Positions 5,549 through 32,398 are shown, numbered from the stretch's first letter. The stretch: 64,000 nt of DNA from Escherichia coli (GCF_003019035.1 NZ_CP027447.1), one strand, 5' to 3'. Translations and numbers: made by a program. The notes: generated by a model from the sequence alone, not told the origin.

Positions 5549-5595
5549 TTGCGCGGTTGATAACGGTTCAGACAGGTTTAAAGAGGAATAAGAAA

Positions 5596-12729: not shown

Positions 12730-13437
12730 ACCAGCCGCGCCCTAACAGGCGCACACGATCTGACATTTGCATCCAACTTCGTTACTTACGGCCCGTAAAC
12801 GGGCTGCCCGGATAGGGAATCGATAACTGCTCTCCCATTTTATCCTCTTCAAGCTGGTGCTTTATGTAATCCTGTATCTTCGCCGTGTTCTTACCCACCG
12901 TATCGACGTAATACCCTCTGCACCAGAACTCCCTGTTCCTGTATTTGAATTTCAAATCAACAAACTGCTCGTAAAGCATTAGACTGCTTTTCCCTTTCAG
13001 ATATCCCATAAAGCCGGATACGCTCATTTTGGGCGGGATCTCCACAAGCATATGGATATGATCTGCACAGCATTCAGCTTCCAGAATCCGTACACTTTTC
13101 CACTCACACAGCTTTCTCAAAATACAGCCTATTGCTCTACGCTTCTCTCTGTAGAACACCTGTCTTCGGTATTTTGGCGCAAATACTATGTGATATTTAC
13201 AGTTCCATCGGGTGTGCGCTAAGCTCTTTTCGTTCCCCATTGGGACCCCCTTTTGATTTCTTGTTTGACACTTGCAGTTGCCAGACCGCAAGGTGTTTTA
13301 ACAAATCAAAAGGGGTTTTAATAACTGGCTCAAAGCTGAAAGCTTTCCGGAACCCCCAGCCTAGCTGGGGGTTTTCTGTGCACAAAAAAACGGGCAAGGT
13401 GTCACCACCCTGCCCATTTTCTTTAAAACCGAAAAGA
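12730..13437 (-). mobile_element. IS200-family (IS200/IS605) insertion sequence, about 0.7 kb; ends approximate (+/- 15 bp)
   Basis: single Y1/HuH transposase gene plus the characteristic structured end (hairpins AACCCCCAGCCTAGCTGGGGGTT and GGGCAAGGTGTCACCACCCTGCCC at 13365-13430) upstream of tnpA; no terminal inverted repeats expected for this family. Confidence 0.7.
12782..13240 (-). CDS. tnpA: IS200-type Y1 (HuH) transposase TnpA
   Basis: 152 aa from MGNEKSLAHTRWNCKYHIVFAPKYRR...; HuH motif (HIHMLV) and C-terminal catalytic Tyr region (YIKHQ). Confidence 0.85.
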   Translation of the reverse strand: MGNEKSLAHTRWNCKYHIVFAPKYRRQVFYREKRRAIGCILRKLCEWKSVRILEAECCADHIHMLVEIPPKMSVSGFMGYLKGKSSLMLYEQFVDLKFKYRNREFWCRGYYVDTVGKNTAKIQDYIKHQLEEDKMGEQLSIPYPGSPFTGRK

Positions 13438-14421
13438 TTACTTCACGTTGTAATTACGCAGAGCGTTACGCCCCAACACAATCCCCGCGCCCACCATACC
13501 GCCCAGCAGCACTGCCAGAATCAAGGTGATTGCTTTCTTCGGGCTATCGCGACGAATTGGCAGTGTGGGTTTCATAACGTAACGGTAGGCATGAATATCA
13601 AGATCATCAACCTTCAGACTTTCGATATCCAGCAGGTTTTGACGAGTCTGATAATAGTTTGGCGAGAACACAAGCGGACGAGTCGCTTCGTGCTTAATCA
13701 TCGACCCCAGTGCTTCGCTACCTAACAAAAGCAACGTGTCCTGAGTAATATTTTCACCAGTCTGCTGAATCTGCGGCTTTGTTACCTGCGCCTGATTCGC
13801 ATACTGCAACGCTTCCTGAATCTGGCGGATACGCAGCGTTTTTTGCTCCTGAGCCACCACTTCCTGAGTTTTCAGGGAATCCTGCAATGTTTTCATGCCC
13901 AACGCAATATTATCCTTCAGGTCCTTTTCCAGCTCTTCATTCACTCGGTCATCAACTTGTTGAATGTATTCAGCCAGCTTTTTCTGTGCATCCGCCGCCG
14001 TTTTCCCAACATAAGAAACAGCTAACGGTAACGGCTGGTTTTTAACAGCGGGCTCGATGGTCAGTTTTTCGCGTTCTTCCTGATTATCCAGCGTTTCCGC
14101 TAATGCAGAGAAAGCGGAACTGAAGCGACCAATCAACGCCTCCTGTAAATCAGCTACTTTTGGCGCAGCCTGGCCATAAATTACATTCATGGCGTTGTTA
14201 TAGCCGGCAATTTGCCCCACATCAGGTTGAGTGACAATGGCTGTTGATGTCCATTGCTCTTTCGCTACTGCCAGGTATCCAATAGCCAACACGATAGCCA
14301 CAATGACTGTGGCGATAATGGTCATCTTACCGCGCCACAGTTGTACCAGTAAATCAATTAAATCAATCTGTTCCGGGTCATTGTTGTGCCCAGAAATATT
14401 ATTATTTTCAACTTTCATCAT
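13438..14421 (-). CDS. wzzB: O-antigen chain-length determinant (polysaccharide co-polymerase 1)
   Basis: 327 aa, N- and C-terminal TM segments flanking a long coiled periplasmic region; adjacent to ugd as in E. coli. Confidence 0.85.
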   Translation of the reverse strand: MMKVENNNISGHNNDPEQIDLIDLLVQLWRGKMTIIATVIVAIVLAIGYLAVAKEQWTSTAIVTQPDVGQIAGYNNAMNVIYGQAAPKVADLQEALIGRFSSAFSALAETLDNQEEREKLTIEPAVKNQPLPLAVSYVGKTAADAQKKLAEYIQQVDDRVNEELEKDLKDNIALGMKTLQDSLKTQEVVAQEQKTLRIRQIQEALQYANQAQVTKPQIQQTGENITQDTLLLLGSEALGSMIKHEATRPLVFSPNYYQTRQNLLDIESLKVDDLDIHAYRYVMKPTLPIRRDSPKKAITLILAVLLGGMVGAGIVLGRNALRNYNVK

Positions 14422-14562
14422 TACCCTAACAGACGGAAAATTTCAGGTCGCCATAGTTTAGCGATAATCTGTATGAATGCCATAGGATAAACAATAAATA
14501 TAATGAATTGTTACATGAACATAGATACCAACTACCGCCAAAAATCATCTGATTACAGATAG

Positions 14563-15729
14563 TTAGTCGCTACCGAAAAGATCGCGGGTGTAGACCTTGT
14601 CTGCTGCATCTTTAAGCTCTTCTGACATTCGATTAGAGATAATGACATCAGCCTGTTGCTTAAAAGTCGCGAGATCACGTTCCAGACGTGAATTGAAAAA
14701 CATTTCTTCCTTCATTACCGGTTCATAGATAATCACTTCTACCCCCTTAGCTTTGATACGCTTCATGATCCCCTGAATGGAAGACGCACGAAAGTTATCT
14801 GAACCGCTCTTCATAATTAGGCGATATATCCCTACGACTTTTGGTTTACGCGACAAGATAGCATCGGCAATAAAGTCTTTGCGGGTACGGTTAGCTTCAA
14901 CGATGGCAGAAATGATGTTATTTGGCACAGACTGGTAATTTGCCAGAAGCTGCTTGGTATCTTTCGGCAAACAGTAACCACCGTAACCAAATGATGGATT
15001 GTTGTAATGGTTGCCGATACGAGGATCAAGACAAACACCTTCAATGATTTGACGGGTGTTCAATCCTAGGCTTTCTGCATAACTGTCCAGCTCGTTAAAG
15101 TACGCCACGCGCATTGCAAGGTAAGTATTGGCAAACAGTTTAATGGCCTCTGCTTCTGTTGAATCAGTAAACAGAGTCGGGATATTTTGCTTAATCGCCC
15201 CTTCCTGTAATAACGCGGCAAAACGCTGTGCACGTTCAGAACGTTCGCCGATCACAATACGGGAAGGATGAAGGTTATCGTAAAGGGCTTTGCCTTCTCG
15301 GAGGAATTCAGGGGAGAAAATGATGTTCTCAGTCTTGAATTTTTTTTGCATTGCGGCCGTAAAACCTACCGGAACCGTGGACTTAATAATCATTACGGCA
15401 CAAGGATTTATTTCTGTAACATCTTTAATTACTGATTCTACGCTAGATGTATTGAAATAATTGGTTTTCGGATCATAGTCGGTCGGGGTTGCGATGATTA
15501 CATAATCAGCATTCCGGTAGGCTTCTTTTTTATCTAATGTGGCCTTAAAACGTATTTTGTCTGATTGCAAAAATTGCTGAATTTCTTTATCAACAATAGG
15601 AGATATCCGATCATTTAGCATTGCAACGCGAGATGGCAAAATATCTAATGCTACAACGTTATGATTTTGTGCGATTAATAGCCCATTAGACAGGCCAACA
15701 TAACCGGTTCCGGAAATGGTGATTTTCAT
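14563..15729 (-). CDS. ugd: UDP-glucose 6-dehydrogenase
   Basis: 388 aa, N-terminal NAD-binding GTGYVG motif and conserved catalytic Cys region (GGYCLPKD). Confidence 0.9.
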
Positions 15730-15918
15730 TTCATGCTCTCAGAATTAACTTAACTATGAATCATGATGTTTTAGCACCCTGATAAGAGTTAAAAGTTTTA
15801 ACGCCACGATGATGTCTAGTCAACGAAACGAAAAACATTTCAGATTTTCTTTATAAGAATAGCTGCTATTTATTAAGTTAGTATTAAGCAATGAAATTAA
15901 ATCAATAAGATTGATAGC

Positions 15919-15949
15919 AAAAAAAAGCCCGGCGATAAATGCCGGGCCT
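15919..15949 (-). terminator. rho-independent terminator downstream of gnd
   Basis: GCCCGGC-gataaat-GCCGGGC hairpin; on the minus strand it is followed by a run of 8 T. Confidence 0.6.
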
Positions 15950-15973
15950 TAGTTTATTACTGATTAAATCAGA

Positions 15974-17380
15974 TTAATCCAGCCATTCGGTGTGGAATAC
16001 ACCTTCTTTATCAATGCGCTTATAGGTATGTGCACCGAAATAGTCACGCTGCGCCTGGATCAAGTTTGCTGGCAGTACTGCGGCACGATAGCTGTCATAA
16101 TAAGCAACCGCTGCAGAGAAGGTAGGTACTGGAATGCCGTTCTGCACCGCATAAGCAAGAACATCACGCAGAGCTTGCTGGTAATCGTCGGCAATTTTCT
16201 TAAAGTACGGGGCTAACAGCAGGTTAGCGATCTTCGGATTTTCAGCGTAAGCATCAGTGATTTTCTGCAGGAACTGAGCGCGGATGATACAGCCAGCACG
16301 GAAGATCTTCGCGATTTCACCATAGTTCAGATCCCAGTTGTACTCTTCAGACGCGGCACGTAGCTGTGAGAAGCCCTGAGCGTAAGAAACAATCTTACCC
16401 AGATAAAGCGCACGACGAACTTTCTCAATGAACTCAGCTTTATCGCCTGCTGGTTGTGCTTGCGGACCGGACAGTACTTTAGACGCTGCAACACGCTGCT
16501 CTTTGAGAGAAGAGATGTAACGTGCAAACACTGATTCAGTGATCAGTGACAGAGGCTCACCGAGATCCAGTGCGCTCTGGCTAGTCCACTTACCAGTACC
16601 TTTGTTAGCTGCCTCATCCAGAATCACATCGACCAGGTAGTTACCGTCTTCATCTTTTTTGGTGAAGATATCTTTAGTGATGTCGATCAGGTAGCTGCTC
16701 AGTTCACCGTTGTTCCACTCGGTAAAGGTTTGTGCCAGTTCTTCGTTAGAGAGATTCAGACCACCTTTCAGCAGAGAATAGGCTTCAGCAATCAGTTGCA
16801 TATCACCGTATTCAATACCGTTGTGAACCATCTTCACATAGTGACCTGCGCCATCGGCACCAATATAGGTAACGCACGGTTCGCCATCTTCAGCCACGGC
16901 GGCGATTTTGGTCAGGATAGGTGCAACCAGTTCATAGGCTTCTTTCTGCCCACCAGGCATGATAGAAGGTCCTTTCAGCGCGCCCTCTTCACCACCGGAA
17001 ACACCCGTACCGATGAAGTTAAAGCCTTCTGCAGAAAGCTCCCGGTTACGACGAATAGTATCCTGGAAGAAGGTATTACCACCATCAATGATGATATCTC
17101 CTTTATCGAGATATGGTTTAAGGGAATCAATAGCAGCATCCGTGCCTGCACCTGCTTTCACCATTAACAGGATGCGACGAGGCGTTTCCAGAGATTCAAC
17201 GAACTCTTTCACCGTATAGTAAGGAACCAGTTTCTTGCCTGGATTTTCAGCAATCACTTCTTCCGTCTTTTCACGGGAACGGTTGAAAATAGAGACGGTA
17301 TAACCACGGCTTTCGATGTTGAGCGCGAGGTTGCGTCCCATCACTGCCATACCGACGACGCCGATCTGTTGCTTTGACAT
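15974..17380 (-). CDS. gnd: 6-phosphogluconate dehydrogenase (decarboxylating)
   Basis: 468 aa, [27 protein letters not shown]... Confidence 0.9.
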
Positions 17381-17573
17381 TGTTTACTCCTGTCAGGGGT
17401 GGTCACCGCGGGGTTGCGCGGCTTGAATATGAAACAGATGTTAACTCAAGTTACATGAATGTGTGTAGTGCTGAATTTCATTAATGCAACAAATACCGTT
17501 CATCTTCCTTTATACAGACATCCACTTGTAACCAAACCTACGCGCACATATAAGCGAAGATAAATCTATAACA

Positions 17574-18998
17574 TCAAGAAATTAAAGATATAATATTCCC
17601 AAGCACATTCGTAACATATTGCTTAGCCTGATTTTCATCACTGCCTTCAGCGTAACAACGGAGTTCAGGGGCATTTCCGGAAGGACGGAGATGTATAATA
17701 TCACCATTAGTTAAAATAAATCTTGCACCATCCGTTTCATCAATAGTGGAACAGGATAATGATTCATACCCTAATTTATTAAAGAAATTATTGGGTGATG
17801 AAATGGCATTTTTTATAATTTTCTGACTTGACTCTGAAGGAAAGTTTTTCACTCTATCTGACCAAGTGAATCGCTGTGGAAGATTATTAACCAGTTGAGA
17901 GATAGTACTATTGCGAGAAGCTATTAAGAGCATTAACGCTGGTAATACTGCATCTCGAGTAGGTAACGCATTTAATTCTTTGCCATTAATTTGTAAATCG
18001 GAGGCAAGCAGAAAACCGCCATTAGCTTCAAAACCAGCGACTGAATCAAATTGTTTAGCAAGTTCTGAAAACGCTGCAATCACATAAGGAGAGCCAATTT
18101 TAGTCCGTTGTATATTTGCAAATTTATGAGATTGTTCAATTGCTGTATTACAACTCACTGGAATAGCCAACGCCTTGATATTAAGTTCAATAGCCGTAAG
18201 TAATCCCAGAATATCGCCTCTTAGCCATTCACCATTTTCATCGGCAACTAAAGGGCGATCACCATCACCATCTGTTGAGAAAATTGCATCGAGATTGTAT
18301 TTTTTAGACCACTCTCTTGCAAGTAGACGATCTTCTTCGCTAACTGCTTCCGTATCAATAGGAACGAACTCATCACTTCTACCGAGGGAGATGACCTCAG
18401 CACCCAATTGATTAAAAAGTGGAGCATATAAATCTCGTCCTGCACTAGAATGTTCATAGATCCCAATTCTCTTCCCCTTTAAAATATCGGAATTAAAAAG
18501 AGAAACATAACGTTCCAGGTAGCAATCCGCACCTTGAGTACTTGTTTCAAGATGAGGTAATACATCTACAGGAGAAAAAACATATTCACTATTTACTATT
18601 GCTAACTCATCCTCTTTTGTGATTTCACCATCTGGACGGTAAAATTTCAAACCATTACGGTCAAAAGGTATGTGACTACCGGTAACCATTATGCAGGGGA
18701 TGTTTTTCTGTATGGAATAATGAGCTAATGCAGGGGTCGGAATTACACCATGATATTCAACAGCGAACCCATGTTGTTTGATAGCGAACGCGCATGCCTG
18801 AGCAATTTCATAACTACTCGGGCGGTTGTCAATGGCTAAAGCAACTTTATTAAAATTGTATTTGTCATCAATAACAGAAAGAAACGCATGACTGAAGGCT
18901 GCACAAACATCATGGGTAAAATCGATGACTAAACCACGAGCACCACTAGTGCCGAAAGCAATATTGCTATCGGTAATGATTTTGTTAGCATTTAACAT
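17574..18998 (-). CDS. alpha-D-phosphohexomutase (ManB-like phosphomannomutase candidate), O-antigen cluster copy
   Basis: 474 aa; phosphoserine-loop motif TGSHIPFDRNG; last gene of the AT-rich cluster; clearly different from the colanic acid CpsG. Confidence 0.65.
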   Translation of the reverse strand: MLNANKIITDSNIAFGTSGARGLVIDFTHDVCAAFSHAFLSVIDDKYNFNKVALAIDNRPSSYEIAQACAFAIKQHGFAVEYHGVIPTPALAHYSIQKNIPCIMVTGSHIPFDRNGLKFYRPDGEITKEDELAIVNSEYVFSPVDVLPHLETSTQGADCYLERYVSLFNSDILKGKRIGIYEHSSAGRDLYAPLFNQLGAEVISLGRSDEFVPIDTEAVSEEDRLLAREWSKKYNLDAIFSTDGDGDRPLVADENGEWLRGDILGLLTAIELNIKALAIPVSCNTAIEQSHKFANIQRTKIGSPYVIAAFSELAKQFDSVAGFEANGGFLLASDLQINGKELNALPTRDAVLPALMLLIASRNSTISQLVNNLPQRFTWSDRVKNFPSESSQKIIKNAISSPNNFFNKLGYESLSCSTIDETDGARFILTNGDIIHLRPSGNAPELRCYAEGSDENQAKQYVTNVLGNIISLIS

Positions 18999-19003
18999 GA
19001 TGA

Positions 19004-19750
19004 TTACTTCTTAATAAATTGAGGAAGTTTGGATAGATTTTTATACGCTAAAGCTATTGGCCAGATAATACCATTCTGTTTCATAGCGCGAATATCTTCC
19101 ATTGATTTATTGATCATGGAAGATACTGAGCGATTGCTAATTCCACCAACACGCATTTTCACTAATACTTTTGGTAAGTACGCTATTGAAATACGCTGTT
19201 TTAAAATATAACGTAATAATGAGTCATAATCAGCAGATATTCGGTAATCTAATGAAAAACAACCAAACTGACTATAACAATCGCGTTTCATATAAAATGA
19301 TGGGTGTGGCGGCATCCAACCTAGTTTCATCTTCAAACGGCTAAATGAGCCACTCTTCCATAATCTAATACGTTTAGTTGTATCATTTTTGGCAACATAC
19401 TCCAAATCACCATAAACAGCATCACACCCTGAACTTTCAAATGTTTTTACTATATCTGCAATAGCATCGTCATAAGCAAGTAAGTCATCAGAGTGCAAAA
19501 ATCCAATTATATCACCAGAAGCTGCTTGAATACCTTTATTCAGTGCATCATAAATGCCATTGTCGGGTTCGCAAATGATTGTTGAAACTCTTGTACATTT
19601 ACTCTTGATTAGCTCTATTGTATTATCTTTCGATGCCCCATCTACAACTATATATTCAATATCTGAATGTGTTTGTTTTTCCAGAGAGAGTAATGTATCA
19701 AGAAGCGTTTTTTCACTATTATAAGTTGCTGTGATAATTGAAATCCGCAT
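19004..19750 (-). CDS. family 2 glycosyltransferase (GT-A fold)
   Basis: 248 aa, N-terminal ISIITATYN...VVDGASKD pattern typical of GT2. Confidence 0.65.
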   Translation of the reverse strand: MRISIITATYNSEKTLLDTLLSLEKQTHSDIEYIVVDGASKDNTIELIKSKCTRVSTIICEPDNGIYDALNKGIQAASGDIIGFLHSDDLLAYDDAIADIVKTFESSGCDAVYGDLEYVAKNDTTKRIRLWKSGSFSRLKMKLGWMPPHPSFYMKRDCYSQFGCFSLDYRISADYDSLLRYILKQRISIAYLPKVLVKMRVGGISNRSVSSMINKSMEDIRAMKQNGIIWPIALAYKNLSKLPQFIKK

Positions 19751-21156
19751 TAGTATCCAACTCCAGAAGAAGAAACTCTTATAACATCATCCTCTTCCAA
19801 GTAGACTCCTGATCTAACCTCAATTATTTCAAGTGGGATCTTGCCAGGATTTTCAATGGCATGTGGAACACCAACAGGTATATATGTTGATTCATTTTCT
19901 GAAACAAGATAAGTTTTCTCCTCAAGATGAACTTTAGCTGTCCCCGAGACAACAATCCAATGTTCAGTACGATGGTAATGGATCTGCTTAGCGGTAATGT
20001 GACCCGGTAATACAATCACATGTTTAACCTGAAAGCGTTGCCCTTCAGCTATAGTGTCATGACTGCCCCAAGGACGAAAAATTTCCCGATGTTGTAAATA
20101 TTCTGTTCGATTATTCTTTTTAAGCTGAGCTACGATGTTTTTAACTTGCTGAACTTTATCTTTATGAGCAACTAATACTGCATCTTTCGTTTCAACGACA
20201 ACCAAATCCTTTACGCCCACGGCCCCAATAAGTCTATGCTGCGAATAAAGATAACTATCTGTAGCATCCTCAACCAAAACATCACCACGAATGGCATTGC
20301 CGCTTTGGTCTTTTGAACTTATTTCCCACAGCGCAGACCATGACCCAACATCACTCCATTGCGCATCCAATGGTACGACCACAGCTTCAGCTGTTTTTTC
20401 CATAACGGCATAGTCGATTGACTCTTCAGGGCAGCAAGAAAAAGAAGAGTTATCCAAGCGGATAAAATCTAAATCTTGAGTCGAGGAAGCTAAGGATTGC
20501 TGACAACTCTCTAGAATATCTGGACGGAATTTTTTTAGTTCATCGATGAATACAGATGCTCTGAACATAAACATTCCACTATTCCAAAGATAACCGCCAT
20601 CTGACAAATACCGCTGAGCTAATTCTAGCTCTGGCTTTTCAACAAAAGCTGCAACTTTATAACCTTGCCCACTAAGTGGATCACCTGACTTAATATAGCC
20701 ATACCCTGTCTCTGGAGCTGTTGGAACGATGCCAAATGTGACCAACTTACCTTGCTGCGCAAAGTCCTTCGCGGCCAAAACTGCTGTAATGAAACTATTC
20801 TCATCCTGAATTTCATGGTCAGCCGCAAGAACCAAAAGTATAGGATCCTCTCCACTTGCCGTTGCCTGAAGCGCTGCAAGGGCTACAGCAGGTGCCGTAT
20901 TGCGCCCAACAGGCTCAAGCAAAATCCCACTATGCTTTAAACCAACTTTACGTAATTGTTCAGCAACAATGAAACGATGTGATTCATTACAAATGATCAA
21001 AGCAGGATTGTGTTCAATCTTTTCTAGCCGTCGCAAAGTCTCTTGCAACATAGTTAAGCGGCTATTTAAAGACAGAAATTGTTTCGGATAAAGTGTACGT
21101 GAAAGAGGCCATAATCTGGTACCAGATCCACCGGCCATGACAACGGGAAGTAGCAT
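19750..21156 (-). CDS. manC: mannose-1-phosphate guanylyltransferase (ManC), O-antigen cluster copy
   Basis: 468 aa, close paralogue of CpsB further downstream ([15 protein letters not shown]... C-terminal cupin region). Confidence 0.85.
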   Translation of the reverse strand: MLLPVVMAGGSGTRLWPLSRTLYPKQFLSLNSRLTMLQETLRRLEKIEHNPALIICNESHRFIVAEQLRKVGLKHSGILLEPVGRNTAPAVALAALQATASGEDPILLVLAADHEIQDENSFITAVLAAKDFAQQGKLVTFGIVPTAPETGYGYIKSGDPLSGQGYKVAAFVEKPELELAQRYLSDGGYLWNSGMFMFRASVFIDELKKFRPDILESCQQSLASSTQDLDFIRLDNSSFSCCPEESIDYAVMEKTAEAVVVPLDAQWSDVGSWSALWEISSKDQSGNAIRGDVLVEDATDSYLYSQHRLIGAVGVKDLVVVETKDAVLVAHKDKVQQVKNIVAQLKKNNRTEYLQHREIFRPWGSHDTIAEGQRFQVKHVIVLPGHITAKQIHYHRTEHWIVVSGTAKVHLEEKTYLVSENESTYIPVGVPHAIENPGKIPLEIIEVRSGVYLEEDDVIRVSSSGVGY

Positions 21157-21161
21157 ATCTA

Positions 21162-21623
21162 TTACCTTGATATAAAATAATTTTTGGTATATTGATGAAC
21201 TGTAGTGCTATTAAGCAACGTTACTACATCAAACCACTTGTAGGAATTATGCTGAATCGTTGGTAGGCGAAGTTGCTGCGGATTAATTTGAATTTCATAT
21301 CCATGCACTACGTAGTGTGTAGAAAAATCTACTTCAGAAAAATTGTCATTGTAAAAGTGTTCATACACACCAAGAAATATGGCCTCACCAAGACTAGTTT
21401 GAACGCCTAACTCTTCAAATGTGATCCTTTTAAAAGCATCCTCGAATGACTCGTCCTTAAAAATTCGCCCTCCAGGCACAAACCAATAATTTTTTGCGGG
21501 GCGATTCAGGCGCTGCCCAAGCAGCGCCTCTCCTTTATCGTTTCTAATTACGAGGTCAATCGAGATTAGAGGAGTATGCTTGACTATTGTTTTAAATAAC
21601 TCATATTCTAATCTCTTTTTCAT
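21162..21623 (-). CDS. gmm: GDP-mannose mannosyl hydrolase (Nudix), O-antigen cluster copy
   Basis: 153 aa, alignable by eye with the colanic acid Gmm/WcaH ([20 protein letters not shown]). Confidence 0.75.
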   Translation of the reverse strand: MKKRLEYELFKTIVKHTPLISIDLVIRNDKGEALLGQRLNRPAKNYWFVPGGRIFKDESFEDAFKRITFEELGVQTSLGEAIFLGVYEHFYNDNFSEVDFSTHYVVHGYEIQINPQQLRLPTIQHNSYKWFDVVTLLNSTTVHQYTKNYFISR

Positions 21624-21625
21624 AA

Positions 21626-22591
21626 CTATCCCCGAAAAGAATCAATATTCTCAAGAAACCATTTATATGTTAATGATAGACCTTCATGTAAATTATAGCG
21701 ATGTTGCCAGCCCAAGTTTTTGAGTCGGGTAACGTCCATAAGTTTTCGCGGGGTGCCATCTGGTTTGGTCGCGTCAAAAACAATTTTTCCTTGATAACCC
21801 ACTACAGAAGCCATTGTTTCAGCCATTTCACGTATAGAACAATCCACCCCCGTACCTACATTAATATGAGATAACATTGGTTGTGTATTTTGTTGATAAA
21901 TTGCGTCCTCTAACTCCATCACATGAACCGAGGCAGCAGCCATATCATCAACATATAAAAACTCACGCATCGGCATTCCCGTGCCCCAGACAATAACTTC
22001 TTGTGCACCACTTTCTTTTGCCTCATGGAATCTACGCATAAGCGCCGGAATAACATGGGAGTTTTCAGGATGGAAGTTATCATTCGAACCATAAAGATTA
22101 GTAGGCATTACACTTCTATAATCGCGACCATATTGACGATTATAAGACTCACATAATTTTATGCCCGCAATCTTAGCAATTGCGTATGGCTCATTAGTTG
22201 GCTCAAGTATGCCCGTCAAAAGTGCAGACTCTTTCATCGGCTGCTCAGCAAATTTTGGATAAATACAGCTAGAGCCTAAAAAAAGTAATTTTTGAATTCC
22301 AACCTTGTGAGCTGAATGTATAATATTACTCTCAATCATGAGATTCTGATAAATGAATTCTGCTGGAAATGTATTATTGGCATAAATACCACCTACTTTT
22401 GCCGCAGCAAGATAAACCTGATCAACCCTCTCTCTCTCAAAAAATGCCTCAACATCCTTCTGCACGGTCAGATCGAGTTCTTTGTGTGTTTTAACCACTA
22501 ACTCGATATCATCACGCAGCGATAATTGTCGGCAAATAGCAGAGCCAACCATGCCCTGGTGCCCAGCAACATATACTCTTTTCTTTATCAT
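21626..22591 (-). CDS. fcl: GDP-L-fucose synthase, O-antigen cluster copy
   Basis: 321 aa; long identical stretches with the colanic acid Fcl ([40 protein letters not shown]). Confidence 0.85.
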
Positions 22592-22594
22592 GTA

Positions 22595-23728
22595 TTAACG
22601 CTCCAGAGAAACCGAAACATCATAACCATGGCTTTTAAGAAGTGCATGTTGTTTCGCTTTTAACAAATCGCTAGCAACCATTTCTGCACACATCTCTTCA
22701 ACTGTAATCTCTGGTTCCCAGCCTAATAGATTTTTTGCTTTTGCAGGGTCACCTAAGAGTGTTTCAACTTCAGCAGGACGGAAATAACGAGGATCAACCC
22801 GAACTATAACGTCTCCAACATTTACACCAATAGCACAATCGGAAATTTTATTAACTACTGTGGCTATCTCATCTACACCCTCACCAGAGAATTCAAGTTC
22901 AAGTCCGACTTCTTTAGCAGCCATACGGACAAATTCACGCACAGATATCTGTTTACCTGTGGCAATGACAAAATCCTCTGGATGATCTTGCTGAAGCATC
23001 ATCCATTGCATGCGAACATAATCTTTAGCGTGTCCCCAGTCACGCAACGAATCCAGATTACCCAAATATAAGCATTGTTCGATCCCCTGAGAAATATTAG
23101 CTATTGCACGAGTAATTTTACGGGTAACAAAAGTTTCTCCACGGCGTGGCGATTCATGGTTAAAAAGAATACCATTACAAGCATATATACCATAAGATTC
23201 ACGGTAGTTAACTGTTATCCAGTAAGCATACATCTTAGCTACAGCATAAGGCGAACGCGGGTAGAATGGAGTTGTTTCACGCTGAGGAATCTCTTGCACT
23301 AAACCAAAAAGTTCTGAAGTAGATGCTTGATAGAAACGTGTTTTTTTCTCCAGCCCACAGATTCGTATTGCTTCTAATAAACGTAATGTCCCTATTGCAT
23401 CTACATCTGCTGTATATTCTGGTGACTCGAATGACACTGCGACATGGGATTGTGCACCAAGGTTATAAATTTCATCCGGTTGAATTTCTTGGATTAAACG
23501 GATCAGATTCGATGTATCTGTTAAATCCCCATAGTGTAAAATAAAATTAGGCTCATCAACGAATCGTGATTGATATATATGATCAATTCTATCAGTGTTA
23601 AATGACGATGCTCGGCGTTTTATACCATGTACTTCATAACCTTTTTCAATAAGAAATTCTGCAAGATATGAACCATCTTGTCCAGTTACGCCTGTGATAA
23701 ATGCAACTTTTTTATTCATTTTAATCAT
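22595..23728 (-). CDS. gmd: GDP-mannose 4,6-dehydratase, O-antigen cluster copy
   Basis: 377 aa, [16 protein letters not shown] motif; paralogue of the colanic acid gmd; true start may be the internal Met (MNKKVAF). Confidence 0.85.
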
Positions 23729-23737
23729 GTTATGTTC

Positions 23738-24769
23738 CTAAATATTCAACTCATTATAAACTTTAATCGTTTCATTAACACATTTTGACCATGAAAATTT
23801 TTGCGCCTGCAGTAAACCTCTTTCGATCATAACATTTCTTTTTAAATTAACTAATTCTAAAGCTTCTTTTAACGTAAACTCATTAATATCATCAATATAA
23901 ATAGGCGCATTCCCCCCTACTTCCGGCAACGAGGATGTGTTTGCACAAATAACTGGACATCCGGCCTGCATAGCTTCTAGGACAGGTATTCCAAACCCCT
24001 CATAACTGGAAGGGTAAACAAGTGCATATGCAGTATTATACTGTATATTTAAATCTTCATTACTCAAAAATGTAAAATGTTCATATCTATTTTTTAAATA
24101 TTTTTCAAGGAGTTCTCTTTCATATTTTTTAAGCGAGCCTCCGCCTACAATTGTAAGCTTTAAGCCATGTAATTTCCCTACAGCTTTGACTGCAAGAACG
24201 AAATTTTTATAACCTTCTCTGGCACCGACAAACAAAACTGAATTATTTACTCTCATATCAGACATGTTAGAAATATGTTTATATGATGGGGATACACCAT
24301 TATAAATCACTCTAATTTTATCTTCGCTAATTGGACAGTACTTAAGTAAATCTCTAGCAGTGTTGTTTGAAATACAAATTACGATATCACTATTCTTGAT
24401 AGCATGATATTTTTGAAGAGAATGAATAAATTTTGACATTCCTCCCCTGTATTTTTCATAGGTGAAATCATGAACAGTTGTAACATTTTTCACATTCAAA
24501 TTAGGACTTTTATGAACTCGATAATAACTTGAGTGTAAAACCCTAGTTTTAATATCACTTACATTTCTATATCTTTCTAAAATTCTTGGCTTACGATATT
24601 GCAACTTTAAGTCGCTTGTATCAAACTCAAATTCTTTATTTTTATACAATAGAATTTCAGCTTGGTAATTTGATTTCACCATTCCTTGGATCAACTCATT
24701 AAAGTATACACTTATTCCACCAAATGATTGGAGATTATAAATAATCCCATCGATAGTTACCATTATCAT
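23738..24769 (-). CDS. GT-B fold glycosyltransferase (GT4-like)
   Basis: 343 aa; C-terminal region with EGFGIPVLEAM motif characteristic of GT4 retaining transferases. Confidence 0.65.
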   Translation of the reverse strand: MIMVTIDGIIYNLQSFGGISVYFNELIQGMVKSNYQAEILLYKNKEFEFDTSDLKLQYRKPRILERYRNVSDIKTRVLHSSYYRVHKSPNLNVKNVTTVHDFTYEKYRGGMSKFIHSLQKYHAIKNSDIVICISNNTARDLLKYCPISEDKIRVIYNGVSPSYKHISNMSDMRVNNSVLFVGAREGYKNFVLAVKAVGKLHGLKLTIVGGGSLKKYERELLEKYLKNRYEHFTFLSNEDLNIQYNTAYALVYPSSYEGFGIPVLEAMQAGCPVICANTSSLPEVGGNAPIYIDDINEFTLKEALELVNLKRNVMIERGLLQAQKFSWSKCVNETIKVYNELNI

Positions 24770-26022
24770 CGCCCTCGCAAGGTAATACGTTCGATTAGAA
24801 CGAACAATATCAAAAAGAAGATCAGTAACAATACATATGCCGGCCCAGCAAAATAAGTTCCAAATGAAGGTGAAATGAGAATTATAGAAAGCAAAAAAAA
24901 GGATGCAGAGTTCGTAATTACTTTTGCATTAAACATTTTAAGCTTAGCAAAAATATAGCCATAAAAGATATTCATAGGTGAAAGAAAAGTTAAAATGATC
25001 AGTCCAACATATCCATAATCAACAAAATTATCCATCCCTTTTGAAAAAGCAGGTGTATGCCCCGACTCTGCAGCTCCTGGATAATAGATTTCATTTACAT
25101 GCAGAAATCCATATACAAAAGGTTTATCAGGAAACAAACCTCTCGGTATATAAGACCAAAATTGGCTGAAATAGACTGTGCCATTGAAAAACTTAACCAC
25201 ACCTTTATCAATATCTTGTAGCAAATAAATACTGTTTTGATACTGGTCAAAATAAGACAATACTACATCGACATTCATATTTCCAATAGCTAAAAATAAA
25301 TTATAGAGAATGGCACACGCTGCCAGGGGTGTAACTAAAATCAGGCCAAATTTTAGAAATCTAGATTTATTAAGACTTAACACTGCAAGATAAAAAATCG
25401 CAAATGAAAGAATAAAGGTTTTCGATCCAAGAAAAAAAACCAAGGTACAATAGAATATCGCGCATAAAAATAATTTTATTTCCGAGCGTAAAGCCAACGC
25501 CCTGGAAAAATAAGATACCGAAAGCATACTTAAAGAAAAGGCATATAAAACACCATTACCTTCTCGATAGTTTTGATAACCATCCCTGGGATTCGTCAAC
25601 CATCCAGAAATACCTATTTCTGACTTTGAAGAAAGAAGAACAAATAATGTAATAAACAGAACCAATGTAATATTTGATATTCTTTTTAATTTTGTATGCG
25701 AAATTAAGCAAGTTAAATAGATCTCTCTATTTTTGAATGCTATATTAAAAATAAAATAAAAGAAAATTATAGATAAAACACCCACAAAAGAGTATATGTT
25801 ATATATAAATAAAGCCTCATTATAATATTGATTTAAAGCAAAGTCTGAACCGTAGAAAAGAGGAGCCAAAATATTTTCCAATAGAAAAACCGGAAATAAA
25901 ATAATGGCGTAAATGGTAAAGGGATTGATAATTGTAAGTCTTAGCGTTTTCGTCGCTAATAAAGAAAAAGAATAATATAGTACTATAGCTAGTGTAACAT
26001 TTAAACAATATATTATTACCAC
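24766..26022 (-). CDS. wzy: O-antigen polymerase candidate
   Basis: 418 aa, very hydrophobic multi-pass membrane protein with low-complexity AT-rich codon usage, located between glycosyltransferase genes; start codon uncertain. Confidence 0.55.
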   Translation of the reverse strand: MVIIYCLNVTLAIVLYYSFSLLATKTLRLTIINPFTIYAIILFPVFLLENILAPLFYGSDFALNQYYNEALFIYNIYSFVGVLSIIFFYFIFNIAFKNREIYLTCLISHTKLKRISNITLVLFITLFVLLSSKSEIGISGWLTNPRDGYQNYREGNGVLYAFSLSMLSVSYFSRALALRSEIKLFLCAIFYCTLVFFLGSKTFILSFAIFYLAVLSLNKSRFLKFGLILVTPLAACAILYNLFLAIGNMNVDVVLSYFDQYQNSIYLLQDIDKGVVKFFNGTVYFSQFWSYIPRGLFPDKPFVYGFLHVNEIYYPGAAESGHTPAFSKGMDNFVDYGYVGLIILTFLSPMNIFYGYIFAKLKMFNAKVITNSASFFLLSIILISPSFGTYFAGPAYVLLLIFFLILFVLIERITLRGR

Positions 26023-26032
26023 ATCCTCCCCC

Positions 26033-26842
26033 CTATCTTAAACCGAATAATTTGCGCTTAATTGATTTTGTTTTTTGATATAATGCTTGAGGAACAATCA
26101 CTTTAAATAAAACTTGCAATGAATTATAGACAGCAAATTTTATTTTATATGATAAGGGCATATGAATATTATTTTTAGCTAGAATATAAGCAATTTCTTT
26201 CTTGACTAATTTTTTATTAGATTCATTTGAACTTACACCCGAAGCATCCATTATGGATACAGGAAAATTCACATAATGCATCGTAGATGGATCTATTGTT
26301 CTTATCATAAAATCACTATCAGCAGCAATTTTTAGTGTTGTATCAAAGCGATTAGCATTATCTTTAAAAAAGCTAGAATGCTGGAAAGTACCCTGATGAG
26401 GAGGAAGTGAAGGCCGACCACATTCCCACTTTTTCTTTATTTTTCCGTAAACTCCAACTATATTATCTTCATCACTAAAATATACATCACCATATATAGT
26501 TGTTGCACTCATATTTTCGTGAATGGCATTTGCTATTTTTGAAAGAGTATTATTTTCATAGAATGTATCGCCAGCTCCCATAAAAATAACCCAATCGCCA
26601 TTTATGTGAGGAAGAGCTTTATTCCAAGCGTCGTATATTCCTTGATCAGATTCGCATAAAAAATAATCTATAATATCAATATATCTATAAATATATTCTA
26701 GTGTTGATTTGTTAGAGTTGCCGTCTATAACAATCCATTGAATATTACAATAATTTTGATTTTTAATAGATTCCGCAGTCTTGCAGAAATCTTCCTCACA
26801 ATTATACGTCGATGTTATTATAGTAATCTGTAAGCCATTCAT
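26033..26842 (-). CDS. family 2 glycosyltransferase
   Basis: 269 aa, N-terminal ITIITSTYN...VIDGNS pattern typical of GT2. Confidence 0.65.
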   Translation of the reverse strand: MNGLQITIITSTYNCEEDFCKTAESIKNQNYCNIQWIVIDGNSNKSTLEYIYRYIDIIDYFLCESDQGIYDAWNKALPHINGDWVIFMGAGDTFYENNTLSKIANAIHENMSATTIYGDVYFSDEDNIVGVYGKIKKKWECGRPSLPPHQGTFQHSSFFKDNANRFDTTLKIAADSDFMIRTIDPSTMHYVNFPVSIMDASGVSSNESNKKLVKKEIAYILAKNNIHMPLSYKIKFAVYNSLQVLFKVIVPQALYQKTKSIKRKLFGLR

Positions 26843-26848
26843 CTTAAC

Positions 26849-27559
26849 TCACTTATTTTTCATGGCAATATATTTTAATCTTAATTCTTTAATTAAGGTC
26901 TTTACTTTACTATCAGTGGAATACTCAATATTAAACGTGCCAGAGACTCCTCTTATTTTGGGAATAGTTGTTCCAATAACTCCTTTTAATTTATTATTTT
27001 TAATTTGCTCAAAAAAAATGTGTTCTAAATAAACACCATCAAGGTCACGCACAGATTTATAAGAATTAGCAAAAAAGTCCCAATATATTTTTTTATTTAC
27101 AACATAAAACCTTGTATCAATCATATTTTCATTCAGAAAAGGAACTGGTATAAAAAAAGCTTTACCATTGAATGCTTTTATACATTGCTTATAATTATCG
27201 ACGTATAGTTTTGATGTTATTTTTGCGAAACTTTCAGCATTAGACAAATAGCGACTATTCATTAATGCATACTCAATTATTTCACCCTCTCCGTAACCTT
27301 TACCATAAGATTTAACACTTTCTGTATCATTTTTGAAATGTATTATCTCGATCGAATCTTTATTAAGTATTTGTTTATCATTATGAATATCTTTCGTCAA
27401 ATCATAATCACTACCATCACATATTACTATAGAATCAGCATTCTTAGACAATTCTCTTATCGCTTTCAATGTATGTAATAATCTTGAATTTTCATCAGAA
27501 AGATTTGTAAGAGGAGCATTAGGTGAGATACAAGAAGTCACTAATACTGGGATTTTCAT
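26849..27559 (-). CDS. hypothetical protein in O-antigen cluster (possible unclassified glycosyltransferase)
   Basis: 236 aa from the ATG at 27559 (MKIPVLVTSCISP...), start overlapping the wzx stop as ATGA; the longer 282-aa reading would overlap wzx by about 140 nt; no family recognisable by eye. Confidence 0.45.
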   Translation of the reverse strand: MKIPVLVTSCISPNAPLTNLSDENSRLLHTLKAIRELSKNADSIVICDGSDYDLTKDIHNDKQILNKDSIEIIHFKNDTESVKSYGKGYGEGEIIEYALMNSRYLSNAESFAKITSKLYVDNYKQCIKAFNGKAFFIPVPFLNENMIDTRFYVVNKKIYWDFFANSYKSVRDLDGVYLEHIFFEQIKNNKLKGVIGTTIPKIRGVSGTFNIEYSTDSKVKTLIKELRLKYIAMKNK

Positions 27560-28800
27560 TTTTTCTTTTCCAGCCTCAACGAAATTAACATTAGTATAAA
27601 ATAATCGGCGGTGACTCTTGCGCTCCAGGCATAAGCCACACCTGCTACAGAAAAATACATAATTGAAAAATATAAAACTAGCAGATATGGAATACATTCA
27701 ACAAGATGAATGAGACCCGTAATTTTTGCATAACCTTTCGATTGGATTTGAGCAAATGGAACTTGAGCAAGAGAGTTGAATACAAAACCTACTAATAATA
27801 TTTGAAATATATAAGGACTCTCAGCGCTATATTGTTTTCCAAGCCATAAAGTTATAATATCACTAGCCTTCAAAGAAAACATAATAGATATAACTATACT
27901 AGTTACACTTATTAATAACGTAGCCTCTTTTATTATTTTTTTTCGCTCATTTTTTGTATTATTCTTGCATAGAGCAGGAAAAATTGTCCTTGCTATAGTT
28001 GTCGGTAATATAAGTAACTTTGAAATTGCATCCGCAGGAGCAATATATAACGAAGCTTTAGCAGGGCCAACTGCATTTGATAAGATAAATCGGTCAATAT
28101 TTGTAAGCAATGGGTTAATTATACTACTAATACTCGCCCATCCTCCAAAACTTAATAGTGCTTTTGTTTTACTTAGACTAAAATCCATTGTAAGCCTATT
28201 ATTTCTAAAAACAAAGAACACGCTTAAAAGAGCACCAGTTATTCTCGCAATCACCAATCCCAAAGTAGCATTAAGCAAACCAACATTTCCATGAATGAAA
28301 ATAACTGGTAGTAGCGCAGTTAACACACCTGTAATTGTTTTTTGTACATTTAATAATTTGAATTTTTCATATCCTTCTAATATCCCCCAACAAACCATAT
28401 TAAGAAGATAAAATGGCAGACAGTAGGATAAAACACTTATAGCATATGCAACACTTTCAGTTTGTTCCGGACCACTAATTAAGGATGCAATCTTATGGTT
28501 GCAGTAATAAAAAATTACGGATACAACAACACCAATAGATAATGTTAATAAAAATGATGTTGTAATTATTTGACTGATTGCCTTTTTGTCGTTTTTATTT
28601 AATGATATTTCACGTACAACGGCTCGCGAAAGTCCGAGATCAAATATACTTGCGTATCCAACTATTGTAAAAAACATTAAAAAAAAGCCAAAGTTAGTTA
28701 TTCCTAACTCCCTTGCCAAATACCCCATCGCAGGTATTGACAATAAAGTTGGGATTGCATACCCAGCCAAATTTATTAAACTATTTATTTTAATACTCAT
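27556..28800 (-). CDS. wzx: O-antigen flippase
   Basis: 414 aa, multi-pass membrane protein of polysaccharide-transporter type immediately downstream of rfbC. Confidence 0.7.
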   Translation of the reverse strand: MSIKINSLINLAGYAIPTLLSIPAMGYLARELGITNFGFFLMFFTIVGYASIFDLGLSRAVVREISLNKNDKKAISQIITTSFLLTLSIGVVVSVIFYYCNHKIASLISGPEQTESVAYAISVLSYCLPFYLLNMVCWGILEGYEKFKLLNVQKTITGVLTALLPVIFIHGNVGLLNATLGLVIARITGALLSVFFVFRNNRLTMDFSLSKTKALLSFGGWASISSIINPLLTNIDRFILSNAVGPAKASLYIAPADAISKLLILPTTIARTIFPALCKNNTKNERKKIIKEATLLISVTSIVISIMFSLKASDIITLWLGKQYSAESPYIFQILLVGFVFNSLAQVPFAQIQSKGYAKITGLIHLVECIPYLLVLYFSIMYFSVAGVAYAWSARVTADYFILMLISLRLEKKK

Positions 28801-28816
28801 TTTTAATTATCTTTTG

Positions 28817-29359
28817 TCAATAATTATTTTGTATAAATGGAGTACCCAAACAATCTTTTTGTGATATAAGAGGTTCTTTGTATAATTGCCAATCTATGTT
28901 AAGTAAAGCATCATTCCAAATAATACATTTCTCATGTTCTTTTGAGTAAAAATTATTGGTCTTATACAATATTTCTGAACCTTCTTCTTTTACATAAAAA
29001 CCATGCGCAAACCCTTCCGGGATCCACAACTGGCGCTTATTCTCAGCAGACAAATTCACTCCAACCCATTTCCCAAATGTAGGTGACGATTTACGAATAT
29101 CAACCGCAACATCAAAAACTTCACCAACAACACAGCGCACCAGTTTTCCTTGAGCATAAGGTTCTAACTGATAATGCAACCCTCGTAAAACACCTTTTCT
29201 GGACTTAGAATGATTGTCCTGAACAAACTCAACCTTACGCCCTACAACCTCTTCGAAAACTTTCTGATTAAAGCTTTCCATAAAGAAGCCACGTTCATCC
29301 CCAAAAACTTTTGGTTCAAAAATCAGCACATCAGGAATTTCAGTTTTAATTACGTTCAT
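28817..29359 (-). CDS. rfbC: dTDP-4-dehydrorhamnose 3,5-epimerase
   Basis: 180 aa, cupin-fold RmlC-like sequence (FGDERGFFMESF..., GLHYQ). Confidence 0.85.
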   Translation of the reverse strand: MNVIKTEIPDVLIFEPKVFGDERGFFMESFNQKVFEEVVGRKVEFVQDNHSKSRKGVLRGLHYQLEPYAQGKLVRCVVGEVFDVAVDIRKSSPTFGKWVGVNLSAENKRQLWIPEGFAHGFYVKEEGSEILYKTNNFYSKEHEKCIIWNDALLNIDWQLYKEPLISQKDCLGTPFIQNNY

Positions 29360-29363
29360 CTTA

Positions 29364-30242
29364 TTAATAACCTTTAATCATTTTGAGCAGATACTGACCA
29401 TAAGCATTTTTCTTCAACGGTTCGGCTAATACTTTTACCTGCTCAGCATCAATAAACCCTTTACGATAAGCAATTTCTTCCGGACAGGAAACCTTTAGTC
29501 CCTGGCGCTCTTCAATGGTGGCAATGAAGTTGCTTGCTTCAATAAGACTTTGATGCGTCCCTGTATCCAGCCATGCATAGCCACGCCCCATCATAGCGAC
29601 AGACAAACGTCCTTGTTCCATATAAATACGGTTAATATCGGTAATTTCCAGTTCACCTCGGGCAGAAGGCTTAAGGTTTTTCGCCATTTCCACAACGTCA
29701 TTGTCATAGAAATAAAGCCCAGTAACCGCATAGTTACTTTTTGGTTCCAGCGGTTTTTCTTCCAGGCTAATTGCAGTACCGTTATTATCAAACTCCACGA
29801 CACCATAGCGTTCAGGATCATTAACGTGATAAGCAAATACCGTTGCACCGATTTCTTTGTTAACAGCAGCTTCCATTAATTTTGGCAAGTCGTGTCCATA
29901 GAAGATATTATCACCAAGCACAAGTGCACAATCATCACCTCCAATAAAGTCTTCACCAATGATAAACGCTTGCGCCAGGCCATCCGGACTCGGTTGTACT
30001 TTATACTGTAGATTAAGCCCCCATTGGCTCCCGTCCCCCAACAAATGTTGGAAACGCGGTGTATCCTGTGGAGTACTGATAATAAGAATATCGCGAATAC
30101 CCGCTAACATAAGCGTTGAAAGCGGATAATAAATCATAGGTTTATCATAAATCGGCAACAGTTGTTTACTCACGGCCATAGTCACAGGATAAAGACGAGT
30201 GCCGGAACCACCAGCTAAAATAATACCTTTACGCGTTTTCAT
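29364..30242 (-). CDS. rfbA: glucose-1-phosphate thymidylyltransferase
   Basis: 292 aa, [21 protein letters not shown]... Confidence 0.9.
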
Positions 30243-30300
30243 TTCACCATTCCTTTTAATTCATCCCGCTCTGGCATCATAAGCGAGATGCAAAAATTTG

Positions 30301-31200
30301 TTAAATTGCCGTAGTCGTAAATAATTCGTTGAGCATTCGTTTCACACCCACCTGCCAGTCAGGCAAGACAAGCGCAAAGTTCTGCTGAAACTTTTCTGTA
30401 TTGAGGCGAGAGTTATGGGGTCGACGGGCTGGTGTGGGATAGGCCGTTGTTGGCACGGCGTTAAGTTTGTTAAGAGCAAGGTTAATCCCTGCTTTGCGCG
30501 CTTCTTCAAATACCAGAGCGGCATAATCGTGCCAGGTTGTTGTACCGCCAGCAACCAGATGGTACAAACCAGCAACTTCTGGTTTGTCTACTGCTACGCG
30601 AATGGCATGAGCGGTGCAATCAGCCAGCAATTCGGCACCTGTTGGTGCGCCAAACTGATCGTTTATCACAGCCAGTTCTTCGCGCTCTTTTGCCAGACGC
30701 AACATTGTTTTGGCGAAGTTATTTCCTTTACCTGCATATACCCAGCTGGTACGGAAAATAATATGCTTCGCGCAATGTTTCTGTAACGCTTTTTCTCCGG
30801 CTAGTTTAGTTTCACCATAAACATTCAAAGGTGCTGTAGCATCCGTCTCCTGCCACGGTATTTCACCGGTTCCCGGAAATACGTAGTCAGTAGAGTAGTG
30901 AATAACCCAAGCGCCGACTTCATTAGCTGCTTTTGCAATCGCTTCGACACTTGTCGCGTTAAGTAATTGTGCAAATTCCGGTTCTGATTCCGCTTTGTCT
31001 ACTGCAGTGTGAGCAGCCGCATTAACAATAACATCAGGGCGAATTTTTTTGACAGTTTCAGCTACACCTTCGGGATTACTAAAATCACCACAATAATCAG
31101 TGGAGTGAACATCAAGAGCAATCAGATTACCCAGCGGTGCCAGAGCACGCTGCAGTTCCCAACCTACCTGCCCTGTTTTGCCGAATAGGAGGATATTCAT
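30301..31200 (-). CDS. rfbD: dTDP-4-dehydrorhamnose reductase
   Basis: 299 aa, [20 protein letters not shown]... Confidence 0.9.
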   Translation of the reverse strand: MNILLFGKTGQVGWELQRALAPLGNLIALDVHSTDYCGDFSNPEGVAETVKKIRPDVIVNAAAHTAVDKAESEPEFAQLLNATSVEAIAKAANEVGAWVIHYSTDYVFPGTGEIPWQETDATAPLNVYGETKLAGEKALQKHCAKHIIFRTSWVYAGKGNNFAKTMLRLAKEREELAVINDQFGAPTGAELLADCTAHAIRVAVDKPEVAGLYHLVAGGTTTWHDYAALVFEEARKAGINLALNKLNAVPTTAYPTPARRPHNSRLNTEKFQQNFALVLPDWQVGVKRMLNELFTTTAI

Positions 31201-32285: not shown

Positions 32286-32359
32286 TTTTTTATTCCATAT
32301 AGCCAGAGAGCATGCTGTGAAATAGACTGCTCCAGATTTGATTAATAGATGCATTAATG

Positions 32360-32398
32360 CACGCTACCGCCCCTGGCTTAACAGCTACCAGAGCACTG
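32360..32398 (-). promoter_or_regulatory. JUMPstart element with ops site (GGCGGTAG) in the rfb 5' leader
   Basis: minus-strand sequence CAGTGCTCTGGTAGCTGTTAAGCCAGGGGCGGTAGCGTG; ops octamer at 32364-32371. Confidence 0.75.

Follow-up and report, generated by a model that had tools for sequence, protein, structure and literature searches.

The genes for GDP-L-fucose synthesis were analyzed in a stretch of 64,000 nucleotides of an Escherichia coli genome (GCF_003019035.1, NZ_CP027447.1), called here the window, with positions counted from its first letter. The window is the published E. coli O36 locus and covers the his–gnd–O36 O-antigen cluster–galF–colanic acid region. Two sets of GDP-fucose genes are present in it, one within the O-antigen cluster and one within the colanic acid cluster, each predicted to lead from mannose-6-phosphate to GDP-mannose and then to GDP-L-fucose. 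We hold with high confidence that these sets are functionally equivalent and anciently diverged, the O-antigen set being a horizontally gained cassette and the colanic acid set lying in an operon of its own. This reading is carried by gene content, divergence, synteny, tree topology and family membership, all of which were observed directly.

The genes gmd, fcl, gmm and manC are each present in two copies, one within 19750-23728 and one within 42100-47330, as an earlier note on this DNA had claimed, and all eight copies are intact open reading frames (ORFs) on the minus strand (Table 1; the RefSeq start of the O-antigen gmd, 23719, shows a minor difference). The limits proposed for the O-antigen set were correct from gmd to manC, but the unit extends further, to 17574, and also includes wfeY, which encodes a family 2 glycosyltransferase (GT2), and manB. 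It is a six-gene cassette, gmd-fcl-gmm-manC-wfeY-manB (17574-23728), which closes the O36 O-antigen operon on the gnd side and whose genes either have at most 5 bp between them or share a single base. Both Gmd proteins belong to their family by score and by the motifs STSE and YAVAK, which contain the Thr/Glu and Tyr-x3-Lys residues that are catalytic in E. coli Gmd as in other SDR enzymes. Both Fcl proteins are likewise members and contain SSC (107) and YAIAK (136), with Ser107/Cys109 and Tyr136-x3-Lys140, and both copies of Gmm (NF011963) and of ManC (TIGR01479) belong to their families. The more specific models separate the sets. The O-antigen ManC misses the CpsB-specific model NF012004 (673 for a cutoff of 859), the O-antigen ManB gives no match to the CpsG model NF011943 at E<=1e-5, and the CpsB, CpsG and WcaI equivalogs are passed by the colanic acid set only (the RefSeq name of the last gene product is colanic acid biosynthesis fucosyltransferase WcaI). 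Since the CpsB and CpsG models are failed by the O-antigen copies and passed by the colanic acid copies, the O-antigen ManC and ManB genes are not of the colanic acid type.

Table 1. Genes of the two GDP-fucose sets and operon-head elements in the window (GC3, GC content at third codon positions; scores are given with the model cutoff where available)
Gene or element	Description	Position	Strand	Match or composition
gmd, O-antigen copy	GDP-mannose 4,6-dehydratase	22595-23728	-	TIGR01472 581.4 (cutoff 415); GC3 0.25
fcl, O-antigen copy	GDP-L-fucose synthase	21626-22591	-	NF047922 546.7 (cutoff 500)
gmm, O-antigen copy	GDP-mannose mannosyl hydrolase (Nudix)	21162-21623	-	NF011963 201.9 (cutoff 146)
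manC, O-antigen copy	bifunctional GDP-mannose pyrophosphorylase/phosphomannose isomerase (GMP/PMI)	19750-21156	-	TIGR01479 744 (cutoff 373)
wfeY	GT2 glycosyltransferase between manC and manB	19004-19750	-	RefSeq 'glycosyltransferase family 2'
manB	predicted phosphomannomutase of the cassette's own type, not CpsG-like	17574-18998	-	PDB 4hjh match; 25% amino acid identity to CpsG
gmd, colanic acid copy		46209-47330	-	TIGR01472 587; GC3 0.64
fcl, colanic acid copy		45241-46206	-	NF047922 553.6; GC3 0.66
gmm (nudD/wcaH), colanic acid copy		44759-45241	-	NF011963 323
wcaI	colanic acid glycosyltransferase, annotated fucosyltransferase	43539-44762	-	TIGR04007 894 (cutoff 800)
cpsB/manC, colanic acid copy		42100-43536	-	NF012004 1113 (cutoff 859); TIGR01479 810 (cutoff 373)
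cpsG/manB, colanic acid copy		40629-41999	-	NF011943 1057 (cutoff 801)
JUMPStart with ops	39 nt, upstream of rmlB; ops GGCGGTAG at 32364-32371	32360-32398	-	reads cagtgctctggtagctgttaagccaggggcggtagcgtg
JUMPStart/ops	upstream of wza, head of colanic acid operon	56439-56477	-	reads cagtgtattggtagctaaaaagccaggggcggtagcgtg

The locus was identified by megablast against 5,426 complete E. coli genomes. Eight of them span the whole query (17574-29359) at 98.4-100% identity, and in all eight wzx and wzy are annotated as 'O36 family'. The gene order of the O-antigen cluster, taken from the best RefSeq match, is rfbB-rfbD-rfbA-rfbC-wzx-hypothetical gene-GT2-wzy-GT4-gmd-fcl-gmm-manC-GT2-manB, followed by gnd. 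The window is assigned to O36 because of the 100% identity across these 11.8 kb to genomes with O36 family wzx and wzy, together with the same gene order. The structure and gene cluster of O36 have already been published (Perepelov 2014, Carbohydr Res 390:46, as cited in PMC7685785), and the O unit bears a two-residue side branch (PMC7685785). According to the ORF listing and composition, the minus-strand array of the window consists of wzzB (13438-14421), ugd, gnd (15974-17380), the low-GC block (17574-32354) and galF. Past galF, the ORF listing gives the wca cluster as far as wza (55121-56260), then asmA, dcd and udk.

The divergence between the two sets was measured gene by gene. Amino acid identity, with nucleotide identity in brackets, is 78% (67.5%) for Gmd, 73% (64.8%) for Fcl, 58% (57.7%) for ManC and 48% (50.4%) for Gmm; manB is also present twice, as the O-antigen manB and cpsG, which share just 25% of their amino acids. 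The proportion of synonymous differences (pS) between sets, 0.86-0.93, is saturated. The O-antigen set is AT-rich as had been described, with a GC content of 0.37-0.42 and a GC3 of 0.25-0.35, against 0.55-0.56 and 0.62-0.66 in the colanic acid set, whose operon resembles the host in GC. The long identical run that had been noticed in Fcl is a peptide of 40 amino acids at residues 129-168 of both copies (window 22088-22207 and 45703-45822) and is the longest such run; Gmd has one of 31 amino acids. At the DNA level this Fcl peptide is identical at 88 of 120 positions and at 12 of 40 third positions, in keeping with the many synonymous differences already reported. Megablast between the two sets gave no match, and the best blastn segment pair, which covers gmd and fcl, is 67.7% identical over 2014 nt; the longest exact word common to both sets, in any register, is 14 nt. 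Among 837 shared degenerate residues the same codon is used at 288, for 266.9 expected from independent draws from each set's own codon usage (z=1.67); codon sharing is at chance and the synonymous sites are therefore fully randomised. No gene-conversion tract was observed in sliding windows of 60, 150 and 300 nt, in which identity reaches at most 0.82 (60 nt) and 0.77 (300 nt).

Relatives outside E. coli were searched by comparing the O-type Fcl with one genome per species, for 100,044 species. No Fcl closer than 80% was found outside E. coli in this donor search: the nearest are those of Vibrio ezurae (80%), two Aeromonas and Vibrio hibernica (78%), and Yersinia nurmii and Grimontia hollisae (77%). 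When the six O36 proteins were compared by tblastn, four species (V. ezurae, A. bestiarum, G. hollisae and Pectobacterium brasiliense) proved to have the complete series gmd-fcl-gmm-manC-GT2-manB without interruption and in one orientation. In Y. nurmii the order is the same as far as wfeY, with no manB detected within the fetched locus. A phylogeny was computed from concatenated Gmd, Fcl, Gmm and ManC (1402 columns, 22 taxa, neighbour-joining on Kimura distances, 200 bootstraps), and places the O-antigen copy with other genera rather than with its colanic acid counterpart. The O-type copies of E. coli fall into one clade (200/200), to which Aeromonas and Yersinia are joined (191/200); 195/200 replicates contain the split between the O-type and the colanic acid copy, with Alteromonadales, Amphritea and Marinobacterium on the colanic acid side. 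The cassette is orthologous to the same-order cassettes of Vibrionaceae, Aeromonas and Pectobacterium (and of Yersinia, to wfeY), and does not descend from the colanic acid genes.

These results bear directly on the rival view that the O-antigen set is a recent copy of the colanic acid GDP-fucose genes made within this genome, or that gene conversion between the two sets took place recently. Such an event would account for the common gene order gmd-fcl-gmm...manC...manB and for the identical protein runs of 40 amino acids in Fcl and 31 in Gmd. It would also call for high nucleotide identity between paralogues, and this is where it fails: identities of 50-68% were found, with saturated pS, chance-level codon choice at conserved residues, no megablast match, no exact word above 14 nt and only 25% identity between ManB and CpsG. 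The transferase genes embedded in the two sets are also unlike. The colanic acid set has wcaI between gmm and manC, the O-antigen set has wfeY between manC and manB, and the two transferases belong to different families; this difference in position and family is a further sign of independent assembly. Finally, other bacterial orders stand between the two copies in the tree. Recent duplication or conversion, which the earlier note had also set aside, is refuted by the measured divergence, and the probability that we leave to it is close to nil.

The cassette was also observed on plasmids. Plasmid pdm277c_NDM5 (NZ_CP096176.1, 8932-20277 of the fetched locus; IncFIA/FIC/R, NDM-5) contains all six genes at 74.3% nucleotide identity, and the Citrobacter portucalensis plasmids NZ_AP022396.1 and NZ_AP022515.1 also carry the cassette. 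On these plasmids it is accompanied by a GT4 gene, an EpsG-family protein, other glycosyltransferase fragments and a flippase, with IS26 nearby. Copies at about 67% are present on Proteus terrae and Enterobacter hormaechei plasmids.

The earlier note had suggested acquisition from a lower-GC donor. Independent origin is confirmed by the results above; the donor itself, although the conventional reading, is plausible and unproven, as none was found and the cassette is AT-rich in other hosts too. The GC3 of the cassette is 0.25-0.35 in E. coli, 0.29-0.37 in Y. nurmii, 0.20-0.26 in P. brasiliense and 0.30-0.65 in two Aeromonas. Host genomes of Yersinia, Pectobacterium and Aeromonas have about 47-60% GC, those of Vibrionaceae about 43-50%. 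Set against these general host values, the cassette is AT-rich also in Yersinia and in Pectobacterium, and falls in between in Aeromonas. Within E. coli, where 155 complete genomes bear the cassette, alleles that are 11-24% apart in DNA (88.6% identity for O41, 82% for strain 165, 76% for O43) have an unchanged GC3, and the neighbouring wzx, wzy and glycosyltransferase genes have a GC3 of 0.21-0.26, near that of the cassette. All three observations are favourable to an explanation in which AT-richness is kept at surface-polysaccharide loci whatever the host, through a shared low-GC mobile pool or through selection on expression or silencing, and bears no donor signature. Low GC may be a property of such loci rather than the fingerprint of a donor, and a gene pool that circulates and stays AT-rich would explain the data as well as a low-GC donor does. 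With the present data, this explanation is inseparable from repeated import out of low-GC donors, and the copies of Vibrionaceae would compositionally suit the donor role. We regard it as quite possible, though not as probable.

As regards the enzymes specific to the cassette, the O-antigen ManB, a candidate phosphomannomutase of the alpha-D-phosphohexomutase superfamily, matches PDB 4hjh ('Phosphomannomutase') with E=3e-109 over residues 10-460. Its translation contains GSH, DGDGDR and RPSGN motifs and passes no NCBIfam equivalog cutoff. It is 58-63% identical to the ManB of Vibrio, Aeromonas, Grimontia and related loci, against 25% to the CpsG of its own genome. The GT2 gene of the window is the wfeY of PMC10606467, where serogroups O36, O41, O156, O159 and O168 are reported to have in common an alpha-L-Fuc-(1->3)-D-GlcNAc element and this glycosyltransferase gene between manC and manB. 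The best PDB match of WfeY, with E=9e-23 over residues 3-215, is WrtF of R. tropici (9OMH), which was the first GT2 fucosyltransferase to be characterised by its structure; the best NCBIfam match of WfeY, WcaE, is weak (67 for a cutoff of 369). WfeY is a putative alpha-1,3-fucosyltransferase acting on GlcNAc, its linkage being assigned from the O-unit structure–gene correlation only.

The two sets are associated with distinct operon heads. The O-antigen operon, of which the cassette is the last part, is headed by the canonical JUMPStart upstream of rmlB, and a separate one precedes wza; the two pathway copies are therefore in two operons, each with ops. Around the cassette, no internal promoter or terminator signal was observed in a scan of 17200-33800, which gave 63 promoter-like sites (56±6 expected) and 15 terminator-like sites (11.5±3.5 expected). 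Further exact ops-like octamers GGCGGTAG are present at 14532-14539 (minus strand) in the ugd–wzzB intergenic region, at 43769-43776 inside wcaI and at 57030-57037, bringing the total to 5 for 1.1 expected by chance.

The following may be proposed on how the genes are regulated, what the enzymes do, and when and in which direction they were transferred. Envelope stress and low temperature are the main conditions for colanic acid production. A fucose-containing O antigen would need its own constitutively co-expressed supply, the O unit being built while the colanic acid operon would be silent. The cassette would supply both GDP-mannose and GDP-L-fucose for the O36 O unit, and the embedded WfeY would add alpha-L-Fuc-(1->3) to GlcNAc, so that the cassette would both make the donor and encode the presumed enzyme of the first fucose. 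It would have entered E. coli by horizontal transfer during O-antigen cluster exchange, probably linked to the divergent gnd allele of the window. On the colanic acid side, PMC2731931 includes the orthologous wca/gmd/fcl operon of K-12 among the members of the RcsB regulon.

Several points weigh against this picture of a horizontally gained set with separate regulation. The tree is a neighbour-joining tree of 22 taxa that were picked for their closeness to the O-type Fcl, and colanic acid orthologues of other Enterobacteriaceae were not sampled in it. The donor lineage was not identified, the best identities outside E. coli being 77-87% for Gmd and Fcl and 55-71% for Gmm and ManC. Low GC in the cassette is common to hosts of differing GC and is hence no proof of a low-GC donor. 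As to regulation, a search for the RcsAB box with a consensus (TAAGAATATTCCTA, at most 3 mismatches) gave 4 matches for 5 expected, none of them upstream of wza.

The earlier note had further suggested that two copies within about 25 kb could serve as substrates for homologous recombination, with deletion of the DNA between them. This mechanism is real at the same locus in other strains. In the long-term evolution experiment (LTEE), about 23 kb were lost when manB recombined with cpsG, to which it is 96% identical; the manB–cpsG region disappeared from 10 of the 12 populations, and the two genes themselves were the partners in 7 rearrangements (PMC4173774); the O14 type strain lost its O-antigen cluster by manB–cpsG recombination (PMC7685785), and in O157 manB was converted by cpsG (PMC3158064). 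The same cassette can be associated with such a repeat. In the O43 strain STEC434 (4764-6134 of the fetched locus) and in strain 165 (4722-6092), the manB slot beside the gmd-fcl-gmm-manC cassette is occupied by a cpsG-like gene with 96-97% nucleotide identity over 1333 nt to the cpsG of the window, the GT2 of these cassettes being only about 50% identical to WfeY. This cpsG-like manB would be a genuine recombination substrate, absent in O36, where manB is of the cassette's own type and has no detectable DNA similarity to cpsG. Minimal efficient processing segments (MEPS) measure 25-90 bp, and recombination collapses at 2-10% divergence (PMC9650840). The other four gene pairs, with no exact word above 14 nt and a nucleotide identity of at most 68% (divergence of 32-50%), are far below this, the longest identical segment falling short of the minimum of about 25 bp for a RecA-dependent substrate. 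Moreover, all 8 complete genomes that contain the cluster at 98% identity or more cover the full 17574-29359 query. With its own-type manB and no shared segment longer than 14 nt, the window therefore does not support a recombination hazard; the suggestion is not upheld for O36, and we judge a deletion of the intervening 25 kb by this route very improbable.

Several other features of the locus were observed. The gnd allele (15974-17380) is atypical: it is matched at 99% or more by 6 complete genomes, at 95-99% by 68, at 90-95% by 4391 and at 80-90% by 889. This atypical allele, together with the homology to O41 that is unbroken from gnd through gmd at 88.6%, suggests that gnd hitch-hiked with the O-antigen cluster. 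The wzy gene (24766-26022) is called a 'frameshifted' pseudogene by RefSeq in GPEC60-12-649, an O36 genome with 100% identity to the window here; in the window wzy is a single unbroken ORF of 418 amino acids with a GTG start. Either the label is an artefact of annotation, or both sequences have the same lesion with respect to the family model. The hypothetical gene at 26849-27697, taken as the longest ORF, overlaps the 3' end of wzx (27556-28800) by 142 nt; in RefSeq it is shorter (711 nt) and the overlap is only 4 nt. In the colanic acid cluster, the intergenic regions wcaK–wzxC (37629-37699), wcaJ–cpsG (40575-40628) and cpsG–cpsB (42000-42099) are about 80-200 bp shorter than in GPEC60-12-649. 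Indels of repetitive extragenic palindromic (REP) elements have been described at the wcaK–wzxC and cpsG–cpsB sites (PMC3158064), and the shorter spacers at these two sites are compatible with them. The genes wcaF, wcaE and wcaD (47357-49895) have a GC content of 0.48, 0.45 and 0.42 and a GC3 of 0.47-0.49, for 54-56% GC in the rest of the colanic acid cluster, which is therefore itself compositionally mosaic.

The O36 cluster is already on record, and it is established textbook knowledge that GDP-fucose genes are present both in O-antigen and in colanic acid loci, and that the low-GC copies were gained horizontally. A mildly new angle comes only from the finding that all six cassette genes stay together in several orders and are also present on plasmids. 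The cassette could be a self-contained circulating module that makes GDP-fucose and attaches the first fucose, with gene order and AT-richness kept across Enterobacterales, Vibrionales and Aeromonadales and also on plasmids (including an IncF/IncR NDM-5 plasmid with IS26 nearby). O36 would then have the ancestral native manB, and O43, strain 165 and O157 would have secondarily swapped in cpsG, thus creating the manB–cpsG deletion hotspot. We find the chances of this proposal evenly balanced. In practice, annotation pipelines should keep the two sets apart, the O-type ManC and ManB failing the CpsB and CpsG models. O36 is without the manB/cpsG repeat that destabilises the O-antigen region in E. 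coli B, O14, O157 and O43-like strains, and its O-antigen region should therefore be structurally more stable. Conserved in several orders and carried by resistance plasmids, the cassette illustrates how fucose-containing surface glycans spread.

The window can be compared with several known systems. With the K-12 colanic acid genes (gmd, fcl/wcaG, gmm/wcaH/nudD, cpsB and cpsG), the O-antigen set has in common the enzymatic steps, families, NCBIfam models and catalytic motifs; it differs from them in operon, embedded transferase, ManB subfamily, identity (48-78% of amino acids, 25% for ManB) and GC3. The published O36 cluster is the same locus, with the order rmlBDAC-wzx-...-wzy-GT4-gmd-fcl-gmm-manC-wfeY-manB, and nothing substantive differs. 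In GPEC60-12-649, the best RefSeq match, insertion sequences (IS) are present at wzzB, which is split by ISVsa5 with IS200C adjoining (12871-15845 of its locus), whereas wzzB is whole in the window. The wfeY cassettes of O41, O156, O159, O168 and strain SD2019180 (PMC10606467) have the same six-gene order with wfeY between manC and manB. The DNA of the serogroup alleles differs by 11-13%, all that lies upstream of gmd (glycosyltransferase genes, wzy and wzx) is unrelated, and rmlBDAC is additional in O36. O41 shares the DNA from gnd through gmd (window 15921-23713) at 88.6% nucleotide identity, and this homology stops at the gmd start codon. The manB/cpsG hotspot of E. coli B in the LTEE, O14 and O157 concerns the same neighbourhood, in which duplicated GDP-mannose genes flank about 23-25 kb; in those cases the copies are 95-97% identical, whereas the O36 manB is without DNA similarity to cpsG. 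Among the GT2 fucosyltransferases of GT-A fold, WrtF, WbdO (O157) and WcaE, WfeY resembles WrtF and more weakly WcaE, from which it differs in scoring below the WcaE cutoff and in a linkage that is so far a predicted one.

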